A stretch of DNA of 64,000 nucleotides, from NCBI GenBank assembly GCA_963663165.1, contig OY760175.1, forward strand, positions 4,160,001 through 4,224,000, in the 5' to 3' direction. The notes beneath the pieces are model-generated. The model did not search any database. It was not told the origin of the DNA and saw only the letters and a program-made list of their open reading frames with translations. Positions 19,322-35,607 of this stretch are shown here, one piece after another. The translations under genes and the position numbers were made by a program. Position 1 is the first letter of the stretch. Each line of letters begins with the position of its first letter. The stretch is from an uncultured Desulfospira sp. (GTDB taxonomy: Bacteria; Desulfobacterota; Desulfobacteria; Desulfobacterales; Desulfobacteraceae).

Positions 19322-20215
19322 ATCGGGTAGCCGGGGGTAGTTATCTACCCCAGACCCCCTCAGAACCGTACGTGACAGTTTCCCGTCATACGGCTCAAGC
19401 ATTTCTAAGGCTAAGCCTTGCGGGGCCGCCCGGTTGTTTGAGCAATAATGAAATTTACAGTCATTTCATAGCATGCGTCCTTGGGCATCGGCCAGGAAGT
19501 ACTGTTTTTTTTTCCTGGTCAAAGACATACGTCCTTTGAAAATGCCTTGGATGTAAATGCCGTACGCTCCTTTAACAACCTTTGCGATACGCATCTACAG
19601 TCTTTTAGCAGCATAAAGCTGCTGATGGGCGCACCAGCTAATGCCGTCATTTGCTTTCCCATCTTAAAAGATTCTCTAAACTCTCTCGCAAAGAAACACC
19701 TGCCCGGGTGTGTCTGTAGTCACACCCGCCGGACGTCAGCTTCCTTTCGGACCGGGTAATATCGGGGTTTTCTCCTCAACCCGTATCCACCTCATTACGA
19801 GATGGCCTTCGCTTTTTCCTGCATCTTACGCCCGCACCCCCATCAGTGTGCCTTGCGGTTTCACCTGCCGAATGTTCCCGGCGAAGATACGGGGTTTCCA
19901 CGTTCCACATTATTGCCGATTAATGGATGACTTAGGCCTGCCCACTGCACCGGCGGCGCAACATCTCACGCGGCAGTTCCGACACCTGCATCCTGACCAC
20001 TCACCTTTTGGTCCAAGCTTACCAGCCTCTTTAGCTTGTTCTCCCTGACGACGCTTAAGGAACATTCAATTAATTTGACCATATCATCCAAACCCTTGCC
20101 CTCACCCGGAATGAGGCTTCCAGGAGGGTATCCACCTCACGGCTTCCACCCCTTCCGCAACTGCGGAATTCGGTACTTTGTCGGTTGGGCTTCACACCGT
20201 TGCCGGATGCACCGG
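19322..20215 (-). mobile_element. Group II intron copy E, ORF-less, 5' end deleted
   Basis: Domain V GAGCCGTATGACGGGAAACTGTCACGTACGGTTC, 3' end ACCCGAT; homology to other copies stops at 20215. Confidence 0.88.
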
Positions 20216-21045
20216 CCATTGCCAGAACCATGAAACAAGTCAATGGATCGACCGGCAGCAAAATAAACTGTTTCATGGTGACTTTTACCTATCCCTGTCA
20301 GTTCAGAGATGTGGCATATCTGAATCAACGGGCAGTTTATTCTCTGATGTTTTCATGTGTATCCGGCACTTTGAAAGATTTTGGGCTCAACCCACGGCAC
20401 CTTGGTGCTCAGATCGGTATAACCATGGTCCTTCACACCAATAGCAGAAGATTGGACTTTCACCCGCATATTCACGTAATTGTTCCAGGTGGCGGTGTTG
20501 ATCCATCCAGACGGCAATGGAAAAAGAAAAAGGCAAGTATTTGTTTAACCAGAAAGCCCTGGCCAAGGTTTTCCGGGCACGTTTCCTGGATGGATTGAAC
20601 AAAAAAAATTTGCCGATCCCCAAAGGTGCTCGTCCCAAATGGGTTGTTGATTGTGAGAGGGTTGGAGCAGGTCTCTCTGCCCTGAAGTATCTGTCCAGGT
20701 ATTTATACAGGGGAGTGATCAGCGAGCGTAATATTATTGCCAACCAGAACGGTCAGGTTACCTTCAGGTATATTGACGGCAAAACCAAAAAAGTATGTAC
20801 GCGAACCCTTAACGGCGAAGATTTCCTGCGCCTGATCCTGCTTCATGTATTGCCCCGGGGATTTCGCAGGGCAAGGGATTACGGTTTTCTTCATGGGAAT
20901 GCCAAAAAAACTGCTCTTTCTGGTACAGATGATTCTCCACGTACGGATTACGGCAATAGTGCGTCGGCCAAGGCCTGTGTTTAAATGCCCCCATTGCGGG
21001 CAGCCTATGAAAATCCTGGGGATAAAACCTGCCGGTGCGGGATAG
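20216..21045 (+). pseudogene. IS91-family (Y2 HUH) transposase, 5'-truncated and frameshifted
   Basis: Four frames give HCQNHE.., FMVTFT, HPHIH (HUH), YLSRY (Y2), HVLPRGFRRARDYG, CPHCG. Confidence 0.88.
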
Positions 21046-22035: not shown

Positions 22036-22870
22036 GTCGGGTAGGTCGGGGGGGCTTTACAGCCCCTTTCCCCCCCCTCAGAACCGTACGTGACAGTTTC
22101 CCGTCATACGGCTCAAGCATTTCTAAGGCTAAGCCTTGCGGGGGCGCCCGGTTGTTTTAGCAATAATGAAATTTACAGTTATTCCATAGCATGCTTCTTT
22201 GAGCATCCCCCAGGGAAGTACAGTTTTTTTTTCCCTGTTCAAAAAAACATACGTCCTTTGAAAATGCCTATAGATGTGCATGCCGTGTGCTTCTCTAACA
22301 ACCTTTGCGATACTCATCTACAGTCTTTTAACAGTATAAACTGCTGATGGGCGCACCAGCTATTGCCGTCATTTGCTTTCCCCTCTTCAAAGATTCTCCA
22401 GACTCTCTCGCAAAGAAACGCCTGCACGGGTGTCCCCGGCGAGGGTGCGGGGTTTCCACGTTCCACATTATTGCCGATTAATGGATGACTTAGGCCTGCC
22501 CACTGCACCGGTGGCGCAACATCTCACGCGGCAGTTCCGAAACCTGCATCCTGACCGCTCACCTTTTGGTCCAAGCTTATCAGCCTCTTTAGCTTGTTCT
22601 CCCTGACGACGCTTGAGGAACATTCAATTAATTTGACCATATCATCCAAACCCTTGCCTTCACCCGGAATGAGGCTTCCAGGAGGGTATCCGCCTCACGG
22701 CTTCCACCCCTTCCGCAGCTGTGGAATTCGGTACTTTGTCGGTTGGGCGTCACACCGTTGCCGGATGCACCGGTAACTGCATGCCACCTAGGGTGCCGGC
22801 AGGAGAATGCCGGGTTTGGTCAGGACCGACTGGCCCGCCAGACAGCCAATAATGCGACTTCGTGTCGCAC
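22036..22870 (-). mobile_element. Group II intron copy D, ORF-less, with an extra internal deletion
   Basis: 5' GTGCGACACG, domain V, 3' ACCCGAC; lacks about 165 nt (junction near 22433) present in the other copies. Confidence 0.9.
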
Positions 22871-23735: not shown

Positions 23736-25668
23736 ATCGGGTAGGTCGGGGGCTTTACAGCCCCTTTCCCCCCTCAGAACCGTACGTGACAGTTTCCCGT
23801 CATACGGCTCAAGCATTTCTAAGGCTGAGCCTTGCGGGGCCGCCCGGCTGTTTTCTCTTGCCAATGCTGAAATTTACAGTTATTTCATTACATATTTTCT
23901 CGGCCGCTGTGACAGGGATCACCTTTGGTTTCACCCGTCTTGCCCAGTGGATTTTATCCATGAAGGCCTGCACATTTTTCCTGGATGGTTTAATGAGCAG
24001 TTTGCCGTCATACTTACGAATGTTTTGGCCCAGAAAATCGAATCCCCGGTCAATTCGGGTAATCAGGGTCTTTTCTTCAGACAGGGATAGATCCCGTTCC
24101 GAGAGAAATCTGATTATGGCCGGTTTGACCTTGTCTTCAAGAAGTTCCCGGGTTGCACCGGTAATAATGAAATCATCAGCATACCGGATGACGTTGATTT
24201 TGGAACTGATGTCCTTACCGTTGCGTCTGTCCCTGACAGGGGCAACAGATCCGGCAGTCCCTTCAATGCCGTCCAGAACCATGTTGGCCAGTGTGGGAGA
24301 GGCAATGCCGCTTTGCGGTGTTCCCCGGCCTGTTGGAAAGAATTTACCGTCCTCCATAAACCCGGAAGCCAGCCATTTGGTAAGGATCATCTTATCCATA
24401 GGGATATGGTCGATCATCCAGTCATGGCTGATTTCATCAAAGCAGGCTTTAATATCCGCTTCAAGTATCCAGACCGGCGAGGTTTTCTTGGCCAGTGTAT
24501 TAAAGCATTGGGATATGGCGTCCGCACATCGCCTGTATGACCTGAATCCGTATGAATTGTGGTCGGCCAGTGTTTCTGCTATCGGCTCCAATGCCAGTTT
24601 ATACAATGCCTGAACAGCCTGTCGATCATTGTGGGAATACTTAACGGACGTTTCTTGCCGTTCTTTTTGGGAATATAGATCCGCCTGAGCGGTGATGGCT
24701 GGTATCCTCTCCGTTTGAGGTTGCCTGCTGCCTGGAATTTCTTCCTGGCGGTTTTCCAGGTGACGTTGTCGACACCCGGAGTGCGTTTCCCTTTATTGGA
24801 GGTCACGCGTTTTACAGCTAACAGCTTTGCCTGGTAAGAGTGGGTCAGAAGCCACTGGAGGGCCTTGGCCCGTCCGTATCTTCCTTCTTTCACAGCCTTT
24901 GCGATACGCATTTGCAGTCTTTTAACAGCTTCATAAATGGCTTTCCAATGAATGGACTTCCAATTCCTGAAACTGCCGATGGGCGCACCAGCTGTTGCCG
25001 TCATTTGCCTTCCCATCTTCAAAGATTCTCCAGACTATCTCGCAAAGAAACACCTGCCCGGGTGTGCCTGTAGCCACACCCGCCGGACGTCAGCTCCCTT
25101 TCGGGCCGGATAATGTTGGGATGTTCTCCTCAATCCGTATCCACCTCATTACAAGATGGCCTTCGCTTTTTCCTGCATCTTACTCCCGCACCTCCATCAG
25201 TGTGCCTTACGGTTTCACCTGCCGAATACTCCCGGCGAAGATACGGGGTTTCCACGTTCCACACTATTGCCAATTAGTGGATGACTTAGGCCTGCCCTCT
25301 GTACCGGCGGCGCAACATCTCCGTGCAGGCAGTTAGGAAACCTGCAGCCTGACCGCTCACCTTTTGGTCCAAGCTTACCAGCCTCTTTAGCTTGTTCTCC
25401 CTGACGGTACTTACGGAACATTCAATTAATTTGACCATATCATCCAAACCCTTGCCCTCACCCGGATTGAGGCTTCCAGGAGGGTATCTGCCTCACAGCT
25501 TCCACCCCTTCCGCACTTGCGGAATTCGGTACGTTGTCGGTTGGGCTTCACACCGTTGCCGGATGCACCGACCACCGCATGCCACCTAGGGTACCGGCAG
25601 GAGAATGCCGGGTCTGGTCAGGACCGACTGGCCCGCCAAACAGCCAATAATGCGACCTCGTGTCGCAC
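23736..25668 (-). mobile_element. Group II intron copy C with a defective IEP
   Basis: GTGCG...ACCCGAT boundaries; near-identical to copy A except a 372-nt in-frame deletion. Confidence 0.93.
23809..25016 (-). pseudogene. ltrA: Group II intron RT/maturase: frameshift near 24618, 124-codon deletion after YADD, PQGG changed to PQSG
   Basis: ORFs 24579-25022 and 23809-24606; RYADDF present. Confidence 0.9.
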
Positions 25669-26926: not shown

Positions 26927-26990
26927 ATTGATTCCTCCATTATTTTTTTACAGTATAATGTCTGGTATGAAAGACGTCAATACTTTGGTA

Positions 26991-27121
26991 GCCCACCGGG
27001 GAGCTAACCGGCCGGGCGTTGAAGCCACAAAAGCTCCGATAAAAGTTTAAAATTTCATTAACCAAGCTGCTTCAAAATGCCGCGCAGATAAGCCCGGTCG
27101 GGTTCAGCGGCTTTGTTCGCC
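26991..27121 (-). other. attC site with R' core changed from GTT to GGT
   Basis: GGCGAAC...TAGCTCCCC-GGTGGGC. Confidence 0.82.
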
Positions 27122-27124
27122 TCA

Positions 27125-27460
27125 TCAGTATGCAAACAGTTCCTGTAAACAATTACAAACTTTAATTTGGGTAGTTTTTGAAATAACTCCAAACTTTTTG
27201 ACTAATCTTAATTTATCTACAGCTCTTATTTGATCCAATAATATCAAGCCTTTTTTACCTTGGAATGTACATTGAATTCTTGTGGGGAAATTGAAGCCTT
27301 TGGAGGTCATTGGGGCAACAATAGCCGTTTTTAATGAAGACATTTCGTCAGGAGAAATTACAACACAAAGCCTTTTTTTCTTTATTTCGTGACCTTGTGT
27401 CGGGTCCAATTGAACTAACCAAATGTCGAATCTGTTGATAGGCTGATTCACCATTCCCAA
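27125..27460 (-). CDS. PemK/MazF toxin (cassette)
   Basis: DIWLVQLDPTQGHEIKKKRLCVVISPDEM, LDQIRAVDK. Confidence 0.92.
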   Translation of the reverse strand: MGMVNQPINRFDIWLVQLDPTQGHEIKKKRLCVVISPDEMSSLKTAIVAPMTSKGFNFPTRIQCTFQGKKGLILLDQIRAVDKLRLVKKFGVISKTTQIKVCNCLQELFAY

Positions 27461-27702
27461 TCCTCATCATCAACCAGAGATGCATCCAACCATTCCTGGT
27501 CCAACTCCTCTTCGTTTTCTGCTTTAAGGTATTTTTCAAATTGTTTTTTCCACCCCTGCCTGGGTTTTCTGGATGGTTTTATTAACAGCCCTTCATCAAG
27601 CACCTTAAATTCCAGTTCTTTCTCATTAAGTTGTGCTTGTTCAATAATCGCTTTGGGAATTCTCACTCCTTGCGAATTTCCAATTCTTATTAATGTTGCC
27701 AT
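27448..27702 (-). CDS. AbrB/MazE antitoxin
   Basis: LIRIGNSQGVRIPKAII. Confidence 0.92.
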   Translation of the reverse strand: MATLIRIGNSQGVRIPKAIIEQAQLNEKELEFKVLDEGLLIKPSRKPRQGWKKQFEKYLKAENEEELDQEWLDASLVDDEDWEW

Positions 27703-27787
27703 AAACACCTCTAATTTTGATTAATGTAATTACAACATAATCACTTAATTCTGTTTTTGTCAAATCAAAATCGTAGGTTTTTAGAAG

Positions 27788-28777
27788 ATCGGGTAGCCGG
27801 GGGTAGTTATCTACCCCAGGCCCCCTCAGAACCGTACGTGACAGTTTCCCGTCATACGGCGCAAGCATTTCTAAGGCTAAGCCTTGCGGGGCCGCCCGGT
27901 TGTTTTAGCAATAATGAAATTTACAGTTATTTCATAGCATATATCCTTGAGCATCTGCCCGGAAAGTATTTTTCTTTTTCCGGGTCAAAAGAGAACATCC
28001 TTTTGAAAGATGCCTCTGGCGTGTATGCTGTGTGCTACTTTAACAACCTTTGCGATACGCATCTACAGTCTTTTAACAGAATAAATCTGCTGATGGGCGC
28101 ACCAGCTATTGCCGTCATTTGCTTTCCCATCTTCAAAGATTCTCCAGACTCTCTCGCAAAGAAACACCTGCCCGGGTGTGCCTGTAGCCACACCCGCCGG
28201 ACGTCAGCTCCCTTTCGGGCCGGATAATGTTGGGATGTTCTCCTCAATCCGTATCCACCTCATTACAAGATGGCCTTCGCTTTTTCCTGCATCTTACTCC
28301 CGCACCTCCATCAGTGTGCCTTACGGTTTCACCTGCCGAATACTCCCGGCGAAGATACGGGGTTTCCACGTTCCACACTATTGCCAATTAGTGGATGACT
28401 TAGGCCTGCCCTCTGCACCGGCGGCGCAACATCTCACGCGGCAGTTAGGAAACCTGCAGCCTGACCGCTCACCTTTTGGTCCAAGCTTACCAGCCTCTTT
28501 AGCTTGTTCTCCCTGACGGTACTTACGGAACATTCAACTACTTTGACCATATCATCCAAACCCTTGCCCTCACCCGGATTGAGGCTTCCAGGAGGGTATC
28601 TGCCTCACGGCTTCCACCCCTTCCGCAGTTGCGGAATTCGGTACGTTGTCGGTTGGGCTTCACACCGTTGCCGGATGCACCGACCACCGCATGCCACCTA
28701 GGGTACCGGCAGGAGAATGCCGGGTTTGGTCAGGACCGACTGGCCCGCCAAACAGCCAATAATGCGACTTCGTGTCG
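27788..28777 (-). mobile_element. Group II intron copy B, ORF-less; first 3 nt separated from it by copy A
   Basis: Begins CGACACG directly after the 3' end of copy A; domain V and ACCCGAT end. Confidence 0.9.
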
Positions 28778-31082
28778 ATCGGGTAGGTCGGGGGCTTTAC
28801 AGCCCCTTTCCCCCCTCAGAACCGTACGTGACAGTTTCCCGTCATACGGCTCAAGCATTTCTAAGGCTGAGCCTTGCGGGGCCGCCCGGCTGTTTTCTCT
28901 TGCCAATGCTGAAATTTACAGTTATTTCATTACATATTTTCTCGGCCGCTGTGACAGGGATCACCTTTGGTTTCACCCGTCTTGCCCGGAAGTATTGTTG
29001 ATGTTCCGGGTCAAAAGGATTTGCATCGCTTTTGATTTTGATGTGCCGTTGGATATGTATGCTGTGCGCTTTGATGAGTTCGGATGTTCTCGGGTTGCCG
29101 TTTTTATCTTTGACCACCGTTGAGAACCGCCCCGGTTTTGAGCCCTTTGACCAGTACGTCTTTTTCAACCATTGGATGCTTTTATTCCGGTGACGTCGTT
29201 TCACCCATTGCCACGCTTCATTCCATATGTACCCGTCAACATAGCTGAAAGTTTTTGCTGAGACAACATGTTTGTGATAGTTCGCCCAACCCCTTATTTT
29301 CATGTTAAGATCATGAATCAGAGCCTCGGCTTTCGATCCCCGGTGCTTCCTGAACGTCTCGTGGATTTTATCCATGAAGGCCTGCACATTTTTCCTGGAT
29401 GGTTTAATGAGCAGTTTGCCGTCATACTTACGAACGTTTTGGCCCAGAAAATCGAATCCCCGGTCAATTCGGGTAATCAGGGTCTTTTCTTCAGACAGGG
29501 ATAGATCCCGTTCCGAGAGAAATCTGATTATGGCCGGTTTGACCTTGTCTTCAAGAAGTTCCCGGGTTGCACCGGTAATAATGAAATCATCAGCATACCG
29601 GATGACGTTGATTTTGGAACTGATGTCCTTACCGTTGCGTCTGTCCCTGACAGGGGCAACAGATCCGGCAGTCCCTTCAATGCCGTCCAGAACCATGTTG
29701 GCCAGTGTGGGAGAGGCAATGCCGCCTTGCGGTGTTCCCCGGCCTGTTGGAAAGAATTTACCGTCCTCCATAAACCCGGAAGCCAGCCATTTGGTAAGGA
29801 TCATCTTATCCATAGGGATATGGTCGATCATCCAGTCATGGCTGATTTCATCAAAGCAGGCTTTAATATCCGCTTCAAGTATCCAGACCGGCGAGGTTTT
29901 CTTGGCCAGTGTATTAAAGCATTGGGATATGGCGTCCGCACATCGCCTGTATGACCTGAATCCGTATGAATTGTGGTCGGCCAGTGTTTCTGCTATCGGC
30001 TCCAATGCCAGTTTATACAATGCCTGAACAGCCTGTCGATCATTGTGGGAATACTTAACGGACGTTTCTTGCCGTTCTTTTTGGGAATATAGATCCGCCT
30101 GAGCGGTGATGGCTGGTATCCTCTCCGTTTGAGGTTGCCTGCTGCCTGGAATTTCTTCCTGGCGGTTTTCCAGGTGACGTTGTCGACACCCGGAGTGCGT
30201 TTCCCTTTATTGGAGGTCACGCGTTTTACAGCTAACAGCTTTGCCTGGTAAGAGTGGGTCAGAAGCCACTGGAGGGCCTTGGCCCGTCCGTATCTTCCTT
30301 CTTTCACAGCCTTTGCGATACGCATTTGCAGTCTTTTAACAGCTTCATAAATGGCTTTCCAATGAATGGACTTCCAATTCCTGAAACTGCCGATGGGCGC
30401 ACCAGCTGTTGCCGTCATTTGCCTTCCCATCTTCAAAGATTCTCCAGACTATCTCGCAAAGAAACACCTGCCCGGGTGTGCCTGTAGCCACACCCGCCGG
30501 ACGTCAGCTCCCTTTCGGGCCGGATAATGTTGGGATGTTCTCCTCAATCCGTATCCACCTCATTACAAGATGGCCTTCGCTTTTTCCTGCATCTTACTCC
30601 CGCACCTCCATCAGTGTGCCTTACGGTTTCACCTGCCGAATACTCCCGGCGAAGATACGGGGTTTCCACGTTCCACACTATTGCCAATTAGTGGATGACT
30701 TAGGCCTGCCCTCTGTACCGGCGGCGCAACATCTCCGTGCAGGCAGTTAGGAAACCTGCAGCCTGACCGCTCACCTTTTGGTCCAAGCTTACCAGCCTCT
30801 TTAGCTTGTTCTCCCTGACGGTACTTACGGAACATTCAATTAATTTGACCATATCATCCAAACCCTTGCCCTCACCCGGAATGAGGCTTCCAGGAGGGTA
30901 TCCGCCTCACGGCTTCCACCCCTTCCGCAACTGCGGAATTCGGTACTTTGTCGGTTGGGCTTCACACCGTTGCCGGATGCACCGACCACCGCATGCCACC
31001 TAGGGTACCGGCAGGAGAATGCCGGGTTTGGTCAGGACCGACTGGCCCGCCAAACAGCCAATAATGCGACCTCGTGTCGCAC
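28778..31082 (-). mobile_element. Group II intron copy A, full length (2305 nt)
   Basis: 5' GTGCGACACG, IEP ORF, domains V/VI, 3' ACCCGAT. Confidence 0.95.
28851..30430 (-). pseudogene. ltrA: Group II intron RT/maturase (CL-like, no HNH domain) with one frameshift near 30032
   Basis: WKSIHW..RLQMRIAKA..GKRTPGVD N-terminus, TPQGG, RYADDF, RGWANYH; IDRAVQAL broken by one missing G. Confidence 0.92.
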
Positions 31083-31209
31083 CACGACGGGGAGCTCAGC
31101 CGCCCGGAGCGAGAACCGAGAACTTCCCCAAAATTAAATTCTTTTCAAAAACCAAGGTCTTTCAAAAAGCCGATAGCTCTCCGGGTCGGCCTGCAGCGTT
31201 TTGTTGTGC
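31083..31209 (-). other. attC site; introns A/B at its R' core (GTC variant)
   Basis: GCACAAC...GAGCTCCCC-GTCGTG|GTGCG; near-identical to attC 31952-32078. Confidence 0.88.
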
Positions 31210-31951: not shown

Positions 31952-32078
31952 GCACAACGGGGAGCTCAGCCGCCCGGAGCGAGAACCGAGTACTTCCCAA
32001 AAATTAATTTTTTTCAAAAACCAAGGCCTTTCGAAAAGCCGCTAGCTCTCCGGGTCGGCCTGTAGCGTTTTGTTAGCT
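31952..32078 (-). other. attC site
   Basis: AGCTAAC...GAGCTCCCC-GTTGTGC imperfect hairpin. Confidence 0.9.
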
Positions 32079-32081
32079 GAA

Positions 32082-32600
32082 TTATTTTAGTTCAGCCATT
32101 ATTCTCTTCGGTGGTTCACTACTTTGGTGATCGGCGTCGGAGTTGAGAGATTTCTTAACAGCGGATTCAGCTCTAAACGAAATACTTGATGATTCAAGTT
32201 TGAAGAGTGCATCTGTAATACCCAAACGAATGATATCATTCTTTTTATGCCCAAGACTCAATCTCATTATTCGTGTAAGGTTTCCGTATGCCAAAATCTC
32301 TTGTTCTCCTTCTAACGTTGCTCCTTTACTCCAAAAACTTATTAATGATTTAACAACCTCCGGTTCACCGCAAGTAATGATCCTACTTTTGGCATCATTC
32401 AAGGCAGCCAAATCGATATTTTCATTTGTGACATCTCCAAGCCGTCTTGAAACGGCAAGTCTCGAAGCTGCAGCTAAAAAGTCTGAATAGGATTGAATTT
32501 GAAATTTCAACAGTTCACTTCTTTTATTCCGTGCGGTTGTTAAGTAGTGTGTAATAAAGGCTGCTATAATCGCACTAATAAATGATAAAAATATTGTCAC
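32082..32600 (-). CDS. Hypothetical cassette protein with an N-terminal TM helix
   Basis: 172 aa, GTG start, fills the cassette. Confidence 0.8.
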   Translation of the reverse strand: MTIFLSFISAIIAAFITHYLTTARNKRSELLKFQIQSYSDFLAAASRLAVSRRLGDVTNENIDLAALNDAKSRIITCGEPEVVKSLISFWSKGATLEGEQEILAYGNLTRIMRLSLGHKKNDIIRLGITDALFKLESSSISFRAESAVKKSLNSDADHQSSEPPKRIMAELK

Positions 32601-32614
32601 GAGTTTCCTTTACC

Positions 32615-32744
32615 AGCTAACGCGGAGCTGAGGGGCCAGGCTTTTAAACCCCAAAACTCTCGATAAAAAGTTGAATTTTCCTGAACCAAGCACTCCCAAA
32701 AGGCCGCGCAGTAAGCCTGGTCCCTCTCCAGCGTTTTGTTCTGC
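32615..32744 (-). other. attC site
   Basis: GCAGAAC...CAGCTCCGC-GTTAGCT; same family as 22871 and 25669. Confidence 0.9.
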
Positions 32745-32748
32745 AAAT

Positions 32749-33150
32749 TCAGCTGGTTAATAAATTGGGGATTTGTTTTCCTCGTTCAAAAATTATTTTT
32801 TCACAGAAAAATTCCCAATTTGTATCCATTTCCGCATCATAAACTTTCAAATTTCCTTGTTCCCAACCATCTATTTGGTAATCATCAATAGAAAGTTGAA
32901 CAATATCAATATCAGGGCATATAGTTATACTTCTTGGCCGTTCGATAATCATTTTGATTATAGGGATGTCATATGCATTTCGATCTTTTGTTAATTCAAG
33001 AACCATAACGTTGCATAAGTCCCCAGAAGCATCCAAATAATGTTCATATCTTAGTGACCAAATTTGTTTGTAGTTGATTAAGTTCCCGTCTGGCAACAGG
33101 TCTTCAATTTTATTGTAGCCAATAAATGTTTTTATATTTGCTGGTATCAT
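32749..33150 (-). CDS. Hypothetical acidic cassette protein
   Basis: 133 aa AT-rich ORF between attC sites. Confidence 0.8.
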   Translation of the reverse strand: MIPANIKTFIGYNKIEDLLPDGNLINYKQIWSLRYEHYLDASGDLCNVMVLELTKDRNAYDIPIIKMIIERPRSITICPDIDIVQLSIDDYQIDGWEQGNLKVYDAEMDTNWEFFCEKIIFERGKQIPNLLTS

Positions 33151-33158
33151 TTTTAATA

Positions 33159-33285
33159 GCAGAACGGGGAGCTCAGCCGACCGGGGCGTATAACCGAGCA
33201 GGTTGTCGAAGCCAAGTTTTTTCGAAAACCAAGCACTTTCGAAAAGCCGCTAGCCCCCCGGGTCGGCTGCAGCGTTTTGTTGTGC
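33159..33285 (-). other. attC site of cassette 1
   Basis: GCACAAC...GAGCTCCCC-GTTCTGC. Confidence 0.9.
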
Positions 33286-34138: not shown

Positions 34139-34212
34139 GCATTAATTGCAATTTTTGGGTATTATTTTACACAACTTGAACTACCCCCAGAAAGATATTG
34201 GATACCTACCAT

Positions 34213-35607
34213 ATGAATCCGGCAAAATCAACACACGAAAACGAAATCAAAAGATTTTGGGACAATTACATTAATCGTTTAGAACATGCTGGTATTAAAA
34301 GTAATGTTTCCAGGTGGTATGTGATCAGAGCCGAGCAGTATATCAAGGCTTTTCCGGATAAGCGTCTGGCCGATCATAACCCTGAGGACGTGGTCTCCTA
34401 CCTGGAGCAGCAGGGCCGGGCCGGCCGGATTCAGGACTGGCAGTTCCGGCAGCTGGTCGATGCTATACAGAATTTATTTTCCATGCTTGGCGTATCCTGG
34501 CTGTCGGATGTAGACTGGCAGTTCTGGATGGATTCAGCCGCGTCCCTGACAGAAGTTCATCCCACAGTTGCCGGCAGCCTTCCGGCTAAAGCAACCATTG
34601 AAAAATTATCCGGCCGAAAAGGCTCACAGCTTTCCGCTGTCCGCAAACTTCATGCAGATCTTCTGGAAAAGCTGCTGATCGTCTTGCGGACGAAGGGGTA
34701 TTCCATAAGAACCGAGCAGTCTTACGAATCCTGGGTAAGCCGTTTTATTGAGTTTTGCCAAAATCAGGACCCGGCCGGGCTTGGTAAGGTTGAAGTGGTC
34801 TCCTTTTTGCAACATCTGGCTGTTGGGCGGAATGTGGCGGAGAGTACCCAGAACCAGGCGTTGAATGCCCTTGTCTTTTTTTATGACAAGGTTTTGGAAC
34901 AGCCCCTGGGGGATCTTGGGGATTTTGTCCGGGTAAAACGCCCTAAACGGCGACCGGTTGTGCTGACCCGGATTGAAGTGGCAAAACTGATCGACCACAT
35001 GGAGGGCCGCCAGAAACTGATGGCCTCCCTGCTTTATGGCACCGGCATGCGGCTGATGGATTGTATCAGGCTCAGGGTCCAGGATATTGATTTTGGGTAT
35101 TATCAGATTGTGGTCAGGGACGGAAAAGGCAAAAAAGACCGGGTAGTTCCATTGCCGGAAGGGCTTGTCAGCGATCTTACGGCCCATCTTGAAAAAGTTC
35201 GTAAACTGCACGAGGCAGATTTGGAAAAAGGGTTTGGAGAGGTCTATCTACCCTATGCCTATGACCGCAAATCCCCCAAAGCGGCAAAGGAATGGGGATG
35301 GCAGTATGTGTTCCCCAGCGGACGGCTTTCCGTTGATCCAAGGAGTGGAAAAACACGCCGTCACCATATTCACGAAAATGGTCTTCAAAAAGCCGTGAAA
35401 AAAGCGGCGCAGCAGGCCCAGATTACGAAAAGGGTAAACTGCCACGCCCTTCGCCACAGTTTTGCCACCCATCTTCTGGAAAGCGGTTATGATATCCGTA
35501 CCGTGCAGGATCTGCTCGGCCATGCCAATGTTTCAACAACCATGATCTATACCCATGTGCTTAACCGGGGCGGGAGAGGCGTAAAAAGTCCCTTTGACGT
35601 GCTGTAA
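34213..35607 (+). CDS. intI: Integron integrase, long form with an N-terminal extension
   Basis: [18 protein letters not shown]...TTMIY plus the integron-specific WQYVFPS..SVDPRSG..RRHH segment. Confidence 0.96.

Follow-up and report, generated by a model that had tools for sequence, protein, structure and literature searches.

The group II introns described as specialised on integron attC sites, the IIC-attC introns such as S.ma.I2, belong to class C and insert into the bottom strand at the R'' box (TTGT/T, the slash here and below marking the insertion point), antisense to the cassettes (Leon et al. 2010, PMC3001079; PMC7923331). An IIB1/CL1 intron placed directly behind an attC and oriented like the cassettes, UHB.I2, was reported earlier; it was present once, its boundaries (UUGCG..GU) were unusual and its exons poorly conserved (Mob DNA 2021, PMC7923331). 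For EcKTE56.groEL, likewise an IIB1/CL1 intron, experimental re-integration at an occupied site is reported to hinge on pairing of the +1 base and to give perfect tandems (CCGAC/GTGCG) (Gomes et al. 2025, PMC12584367). Introns inserted into introns are described for TeI3/TeI4 of Thermosynechococcus elongatus, classed as CL/IIB1 (Mohr et al. 2010, PMC2882425), and for the Trichodesmium twintron Tr.e.I7/I8 (Pfreundt & Hess 2015, PMC4649490). The locus considered here lies in an integron of an uncultured Desulfospira sp. whose genome is one contig of 6.74 Mb (GCA_963663165.1, OY760175.1); the stretch analysed (positions 4,160,001 to 4,224,000, 64 kb) is referred to as the window and its positions serve as coordinates unless genome positions are indicated. 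In it, a single attC is occupied by two abutting copies, A and B, of one group II intron family.

Like the IIC-attC introns this family is specialised on attC sites, but it is CL/IIB-like, occupies the R' end of the top (coding) strand, with GTTRRR/Y as insertion point, and is sense to the cassettes. It shares with UHB.I2 (PMC7923331) the position directly after an attC and the cassette-sense orientation, and differs from the account of that intron in being multi-copy, with a defined R'-box target, derivatives lacking an open reading frame (ORF) and double occupancy. As reported for EcKTE56.groEL (PMC12584367), a second copy appears to have homed into an occupied site with the 5' exon unchanged, the +1 base, which takes part in the pairing of exon-binding site 3 with intron-binding site 3 (EBS3-IBS3), being decisive; ORF-less copies of that intron are described as re-integrating more often and its ends (..CCGAC/GTGCG..) are similar. 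However, its copies stand perfectly head to tail at the groEL stop codon, whereas the A/B junction is 3 nt short, has the fourth base of the resident intron (C4) at +1 and lies at an attC R' box. With TeI3/TeI4 (PMC2882425) the family has in common ORF-less derivatives that proliferate beside few ORF-bearing copies, diverging EBS and insertion of introns into introns; unlike the TeI twintrons, in which the inner intron is described in domain IV between two start codons with the outer one intact, the A/B junction falls at nt 3/4 and its parse is ambiguous. Tr.e.I7/I8 (PMC4649490) resembles the locus in that one bacterial intron interrupts another and splicing in a fixed order is expected; there, sequential splicing of distantly related introns in a protein gene was shown by reverse transcription PCR and Northern blots, whereas A and B are known from sequence alone. 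The A/B locus can be regarded as a variant of these tandem and twintron arrangements, the 3-nt overlap of which is best explained by regeneration of a homing site.

The occupied attC (31083..31209, minus strand, as are all features below unless stated otherwise) belongs to a RelE/helix-turn-helix (HTH) cassette and to the same attC family as 50-odd sites in the genome. Its R'' box is GCACAAC (31209-31203) and the first six bases of its R' box are GTCGTG (31088-31083), position 3 of the box (31086) being C where T is usual. The attC ends in ...GAGCTCCCCGTCGTG and passes into intron A at ...gagctccccGTCGTG/GTGCGACACGAGG, the first base of A being 31082; a near-identical neighbouring attC (32075) ends in ...CCCCGTTGTGC (CCCCGTTGTGCG). 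Intron A (28778..31082) is a full-length copy of 2305 nt (GTGCGACACGAGG...CTACCCGAT) at the canonical GTYRRR/Y position, which begins with GTGCGACACG and whose 3' end ...cgacCTACCCGAT falls at 28778. Immediately behind it, with no spacer (GAT/CGACACG), intron B (27788..28777) extends over 990 nt with no ORF; it begins at consensus nt 4 (CGACACGAAG...CTACCCGAT), reads CGACACGAAGTCGC... from 28777 and ends in ...ggCTACCCGAT at 27788. The base at 28777 (C, nt 4 of B) is at the same time the +1 (IBS3) base for A. The 3' exon is a MazE/MazF cassette (26990..27787) that starts with CTTCTAAAAACC and encodes MazE_antitoxin and PemK_toxin domains.

The Rfam model RF02012 is matched completely in A (30868-31026, 94.5 bits) and in B (28566-28724, 95.2 bits), and so is RF00029, which covers domains V and VI (D5-D6, model 1-77 of 77; 28778-28854, 72.1 bits in A; 27788-27864, 59.8 bits in B); as both models are complete in both copies, two full sets of ribozyme domains (D1-D4 and D5-D6) are present. 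A BLAST search of A against the genome aligned B from nt 4 of A onwards, over nt 4-699 at 97.4% identity and then over nt 2146-2272. The group II boundaries (5' GUGYG, 3' AY) are both found in A (GTGCG...GAT); B carries the 3' end, and the GTG that would precede its CG... is parted from it by A. Two members of one group II intron family do in fact occupy this attC together, and the arrangement is well defined. A preliminary description of the locus, in which A was placed after nt 3 of B, was right to the base, as was its statement that removal of A rebuilds the GTGCG 5' end of B exactly: without A the sequence becomes GTC-GTGCGACACG, a complete B at the level of the letters. The same three bases are equally the attC's own. 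The triplet in question (31083..31085) comprises positions 4-6 of the R' box, the last bases of the IBS1 of A, and also the bases that the 5' end of B is without, so that an A inserted after nt 3 of B and an A at its normal site in front of a B lacking 3 nt are identical letters and two equal parses. Removal of both introns leaves GTCGTG/CTTCTAAAA.

The normal homing site of the family was defined from every full 5' junction in this genome (n=15 besides B) and in the genomes of other species (n=20, 3 of which repeat junctions of this genome). All 15 junctions of this genome sit 3 nt (10) or 4 nt (5) past the GTY of an R' box or R'-like sequence. In the other species (Desulfobacter, Desulfobacterium, Desulfospira and others) 19 of the 20 are located 3-4 nt past GTT and the remaining one at ATT plus 3 nt; GTG precedes CGACACG at each of the 20. 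The sole metagenome match is canonical (GTTAGG/). The first base of the 3' exon is C in nine and T in four of 13 copies, and a purine in none. Because of these junction positions and of the pyrimidine that follows, the target of the family is read as GTTRRR/Y, an integron core site with the cut one base short of its end. A lies exactly on this target (GTCGTG/C), with C4 of B as the pyrimidine. GTG occupies positions -3..-1 at 5 of 34 other junctions and is followed in all five by the intron's own GTG, giving GTGGTGCG.

A candidate EBS1 of A (CCTAAC, 30746..30751, A nt 332-337) was located in the 9-nt loop of a predicted 6-bp hairpin. Its general form (CNNAAC) is complementary to the GTTNNG of the R' box, and the middle bases vary from copy to copy (CCTAAC, CGTAAC, CGGAAC, CTCAAC, CCGAAC, GTCAAC) with a tendency to fit each copy's own R' box; the sites with 4-nt spacing pair if one base is bulged. 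In a permutation test over 16 copies, related to one another, about 2% of 10000 shuffles reached the observed pairing. Further upstream in A lies GGGAG (30811..30815, nt 268-272), a possible EBS2 in view of its complementarity to CTCCC in the 3' arm of the attC. From these complementarities, the family probably homes by pairing of the EBS1 loop with GTTNNG.

With this target at hand the two parses of the GTG can be weighed. The nested parse supposes that B inserted off-register right after GTC, that its own GTG completed an R'-like box and that A then homed between nt 3 and 4 of B, creating a twintron whose outer 5' splice site would be rebuilt only by excision of A. It needs only two events and no deletion, it accounts for the exact restoration of GTGCG, and it leaves A canonical relative to the attC arm. 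The junction survey stands against it, since GTY is immediately followed by the intron at 0 of the 35 other junctions and B read as GTC/GTGCG would be the sole off-register copy. The candidate EBS1 would pair with 1/6 bases of CCCGTC at that point, versus 4/6 at GTCGTG/. A third argument comes from a regex scan of the genome for attC sites, with 52 matches of which 14 are occupied by an intron. The commonest R' box among the 52 is GTTGTGC (5 sites, all empty), and these five sites continue with TTCAAAAC, TTTGATAC, TTCAAAAC, TTTGAAAC and GTTAAAAAC, that is, with TTC, TTT or GTT plus an A-rich run; in four of them TTC or TTT comes next, as in GTCGTG/C-TTCTAAAA. The empty site implied by nesting, GTC/CTTCTAAAA (GTC/CTTC), finds no counterpart among the attC sites listed by the scan, whereas GTYGTGC plus TTC does. 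On account of the absent junctions after GTY, the poor EBS1 fit there and the likeness to empty sites, the GTG is most likely the attC's own, and nesting in the strict sense is unlikely. If B were simply a copy without its first 3 nt, GTGCG would be restored exactly by a coincidence of about 1 in 7 (GTG in 5/34 junctions), and chance gives no explanation for the direct abutment of nt 4 of B on the last base of A.

The history considered moderately probable begins with a normal insertion of B. The ORF-less B would have entered first at the usual point GTYGTG/C, giving ...GTG/GTGCG..., and one of the two adjacent GTG triplets would then have been lost through slippage or junction microhomology. 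After such a loss the site would read GTCGTG/CGACACG, with IBS1 intact and C4 of B in place of the blocking G1 as the +1 pyrimidine. A complete homing site would thereby be restored, and the full-length A would have retrohomed into GTCGTG/C. Removal of the protection given by a +1 purine would explain why this site alone among the 14 occupied ones was hit twice. The rationale for a protective +1 G comes from the report that an IIB1 intron re-integrates at an occupied site only since the U of its EBS3 can wobble with the resident G1 (PMC12584367). A variant order, in which A would have entered in a shifted register (GTGGTG/C) with the GTG lost afterwards, is inseparable from this one. The view of the preliminary description that an R'-like target had been hit again thus holds in that GTCGTG/C is an R'-box target with A in canonical position and the C of B at +1, while its attribution of the GTG to B gives way to the evidence set out above. 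It had opposed to nesting a loss of the GTG from B by deletion in relatives; the loss of one GTG unit that is proposed here comes close to this, and is seen in none of the relatives.

Several points weigh against a regenerated homing site. No related genome with B alone was found, and the GTG loss is inferred and not seen. The five other GTTGTG/ copies retain GTGGTGCG intact, so that such a loss would be rare, and the T-to-C change in the R' box is a second unexplained event. Divergence gives no order for A and B, the 5' 690 nt of B and of A-type copies being 97-98% identical. The EBS assignments are supported by complementarity and by a permutation test that is weak because the copies are related, EBS3 was not located, and the A/B junction is without confirmation by independent reads.

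Double occupancy alone is a modest curiosity. The locus matters as a natural example of what governs whether a group II intron can home again into a site already taken: in this family the protection of such sites appears to lie with the +1 base, and it would be removed by a 3-nt change at the overlap of exon and intron. The family also shows that, besides the IIC-attC introns, another kind of intron has settled in integron attC sites, one that is CL/IIB-like, sense and in the top strand and has ORF-less, non-autonomous derivatives. Sense introns would be co-transcribed with the cassettes, which bears on the transcription of the array and on how arrays are kept recombinable.

As for the fate of B, the predicted exons after excision of A would read ...GUC GUG CGACACG, with GUGCG regained. 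The 5' exon of B would then be CCCGUC, a poor IBS1 for its candidate EBS1; pairing of EBS1 with GUCGUG instead would move the splice site of B past the GUG, three bases from the 5' GUGCG. In D5 the AGC triad is kept in 12 of the 13 copies of the genome (GAGCCG) and is changed to CGC in B only (27861, GCGCCG). Because B lacks a contiguous 5' end, because its candidate EBS1 and its 5' GUGCG would demand splice sites three bases apart, and because its triad is changed, it is probably a decaying relic rather than an outer intron still to be spliced. Another conceivable route would excise the full 3.3 kb between the 5' site of A and the 3' site of B. A working "shared-GUG" twintron seems doubtful: it would belong to an undescribed CL/IIB1-type lineage that reads the attC top strand by base pairing, in which the loss of a triplet at the exon-intron overlap regenerates the homing site, the occupied attC is re-invaded and the older copy regains its 5' splice site only once the newer one has been spliced out. 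If it were true, the EBS1 loop would diversify with the variants of the R' box and EBS2 would pair with the conserved attC arm.

A different explanation would place the anomaly in the assembly, the real locus being a perfect head-to-tail tandem (GAT/GTGCG) or a single copy, with the gap or the duplication arising from misassembled near-identical repeats. About 17 copies at 92-100% identity in one genome make such an error conceivable, at least one homopolymer difference in A (30032-33, see below) lacks backing from the short-read contigs listed, and perfect tandems of related introns (..CTACCCGAC/GTGCGACACG..) do occur at 4 loci in 3 other genomes (L130-L133); in one of these genomes, on an Actinomycetota contig of a metagenome-assembled genome (L131/L133), two tandem junctions 2392 nt apart amount to three copies in a row. 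The A/B locus is not such a tandem, with GAT/CGACACG versus an intron 3' end joined straight to GTGCG, and the survey that gave the four tandem loci contained no second zero-gap junction that is 3 nt short. A and B are, moreover, distinct variants, A having 2305 nt and an ORF and B 990 nt and none, with D6 differing and an identity of 97%, which makes collapse or duplication unlikely, and a 3-nt deletion outside a homopolymer is atypical as a consensus error. Contigs of four public runs, short and broken at repeats, were aligned to the stretch. Among those listed none bridges 28777/28778; four contigs of one run (X1) continue past the A-type 3' end, at 28777, into different flanks, which agrees with the existence of four other A-type copies, and the inserted triplet that a perfect tandem would require at 28777 is absent among the X1 contigs listed. 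X1 also carries the GTC variant at 31086, its depth (1764.1 minus 1591.6) being about that of a single copy, and this run may be the sample from which the genome came. An assembly artefact is accordingly judged quite improbable.

The last alternative, in which A came first to the empty site and B then inserted at the junction of A with its 3' exon, losing 3 nt at the 5' end through incomplete reverse splicing or repair, keeps A canonical and can appeal to the 5'-truncated junctions reportedly produced by linear-intron retrohoming in eukaryotic test systems, but it is scarcely credible, since the IBS1 of B would be CCCGAT (the end of A; about 1/6 bases paired with the candidate EBS1), GAT/CGA offers no microhomology, and in a genome of the same genus (G001) the same cassette carries the 3' end of a B-type copy at exactly this 3' junction with no A-type copy in front.

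In that genome the MazEF cassette is 86% identical and is preceded by the B-type 3' end at GAT/CTTCTAAAA, which suggests that B and the MazEF cassette belong together; the 5' 800 nt of the intron (locus L003, G001:C2:1-1151) are replaced by an insertion element. Two other genomes (G005 and G051) contain the toxin-antitoxin pair outside an integron, with no attC and no intron, and a further one (G013) has the upstream cassette without this attC. None of these four genomes, compared in search of B alone or of an empty site, shows the 5' junction. The intron remnant of G001 was also considered as the specific orthologue of B and rejected in this role, its identity to B being 89.1%, against 89.6-91.6% to copy D and the five remaining B-type copies.

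The family comprises about 17 copies or fragments (92-100% identity) spread over three integron arrays of the genome, the other two being located near 1.86-1.92 Mb and 5.54-5.61 Mb. Two copies are full length, A and copy F (genome 5575411-5573101), three have internal deletions in the reverse transcriptase (RT) gene, and about eight, B included, have an ORF-less form of roughly 990 nt with its own D6 variant. This form is located in the window at 27788-28777, 22036-22870 and 19322-20218, and in the genome at 5576789-5577783, 1885151-1886142, 903578-904577 and other positions; like the ORF-less introns of Thermosynechococcus, it appears to be non-autonomous and mobilised in trans. A few copies lie behind terminator-like hairpins outside integrons (genome 903578; loci L148 and L161). 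The same internal deletion (A nt 1723-2095) is found in two copies, at 23736-25668 of the window and at genome 1886896-1888829, from which it follows that a deletion derivative of the RT-bearing intron was itself copied. Between A and F, 42 of the 45 differing alignment columns fall within nt 1-595 (the 5' part of the ribozyme) and 3 in the remaining 1700 nt, a mosaic that suggests recombination between copies.

The RT/maturase gene of A (28851..30436, domain IV) encodes RVT_N, RVT_1 and GIIM domains and no HNH domain, and is divided into two frames in the assembly; an intact frame (526 codons) is seen in copy F only. The split in A results from GG versus GGG at 30032-30033, a 1-nt gap relative to F, and copy C has the same difference (about 24618). 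The X1 contigs listed carry the third G at 30032-30033, and the frameshift of A and C may be a homopolymer error of the assembly. The protein of copy F matches TIGR04416 (361 bits). Its best solved relative is 6me0_C (E 1.5e-165), taken here to be part of the Thermosynechococcus TeI4h intron ribonucleoprotein (6ME0), which is the further point of likeness to TeI3/TeI4; group IIC RTs match much more weakly (6ar1, 6.9e-33; 5hhl/5hhj, about 1e-27). The introns and most cassette ORFs lie on the minus strand with intI divergent, and the introns are therefore sense to the cassettes. Judged from protein and insertion sites, the family is a CL/IIB-like, sense-oriented, attC-targeting one. An identity as IIC-attC introns was ruled out by protein class, top strand, sense orientation and the GTTRRR/Y insertion point.

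The window holds a classical integron, made up of an IntI integrase gene (34198..35607, plus strand; TIGR02249, 456.5 bits against a cut-off of 265) and, divergent from it, an array of attC-bounded cassettes that runs from ~33.3 kb down to ~18.6 kb, with repeated R''...R' sites at 33282, 32741, 32075, 31206, 27115, 26325, 25795 and 22998. The genes are nearly all on the minus strand, an HTH gene of one cassette being on the plus strand, and most cassettes are toxin-antitoxin pairs (RelE/HTH, MazEF twice, PIN twice). The array contains five intron copies (A to E), which all lie on the minus strand and share the direction of most of the cassette genes. Besides A and B these are copy C (23736..25668), at GTTCGG/C and with an internal deletion in the RT gene; copy D (22036..22870), an ORF-less copy of 835 nt at GTTCTCG/T; and copy E (19322..20218), the 5' end of which is cut off by an element with a Y2 transposase gene (PF04986, 20185-20984, plus strand), this gene being itself split into two frames.

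In the three cassettes nearest attI (31957-33282) the first six bases are the exact complement of the cassette's own attC R'' (cassette start/R'' pairs TTCTGC/GCAGAA, TTAGCT/AGCTAA and TTGTGC/GCACAA, the slash here separating the two members of a pair). This complementarity was tried as a discriminator for the A/B site and fails down the array, where the R'' of the MazEF attC is GGCGAAC. The R' box at 31086 reads GTC, as against the GTT that integron integrases cut, and is the only GTC among the integron-array sites listed; this change may have frozen the cassette junction.

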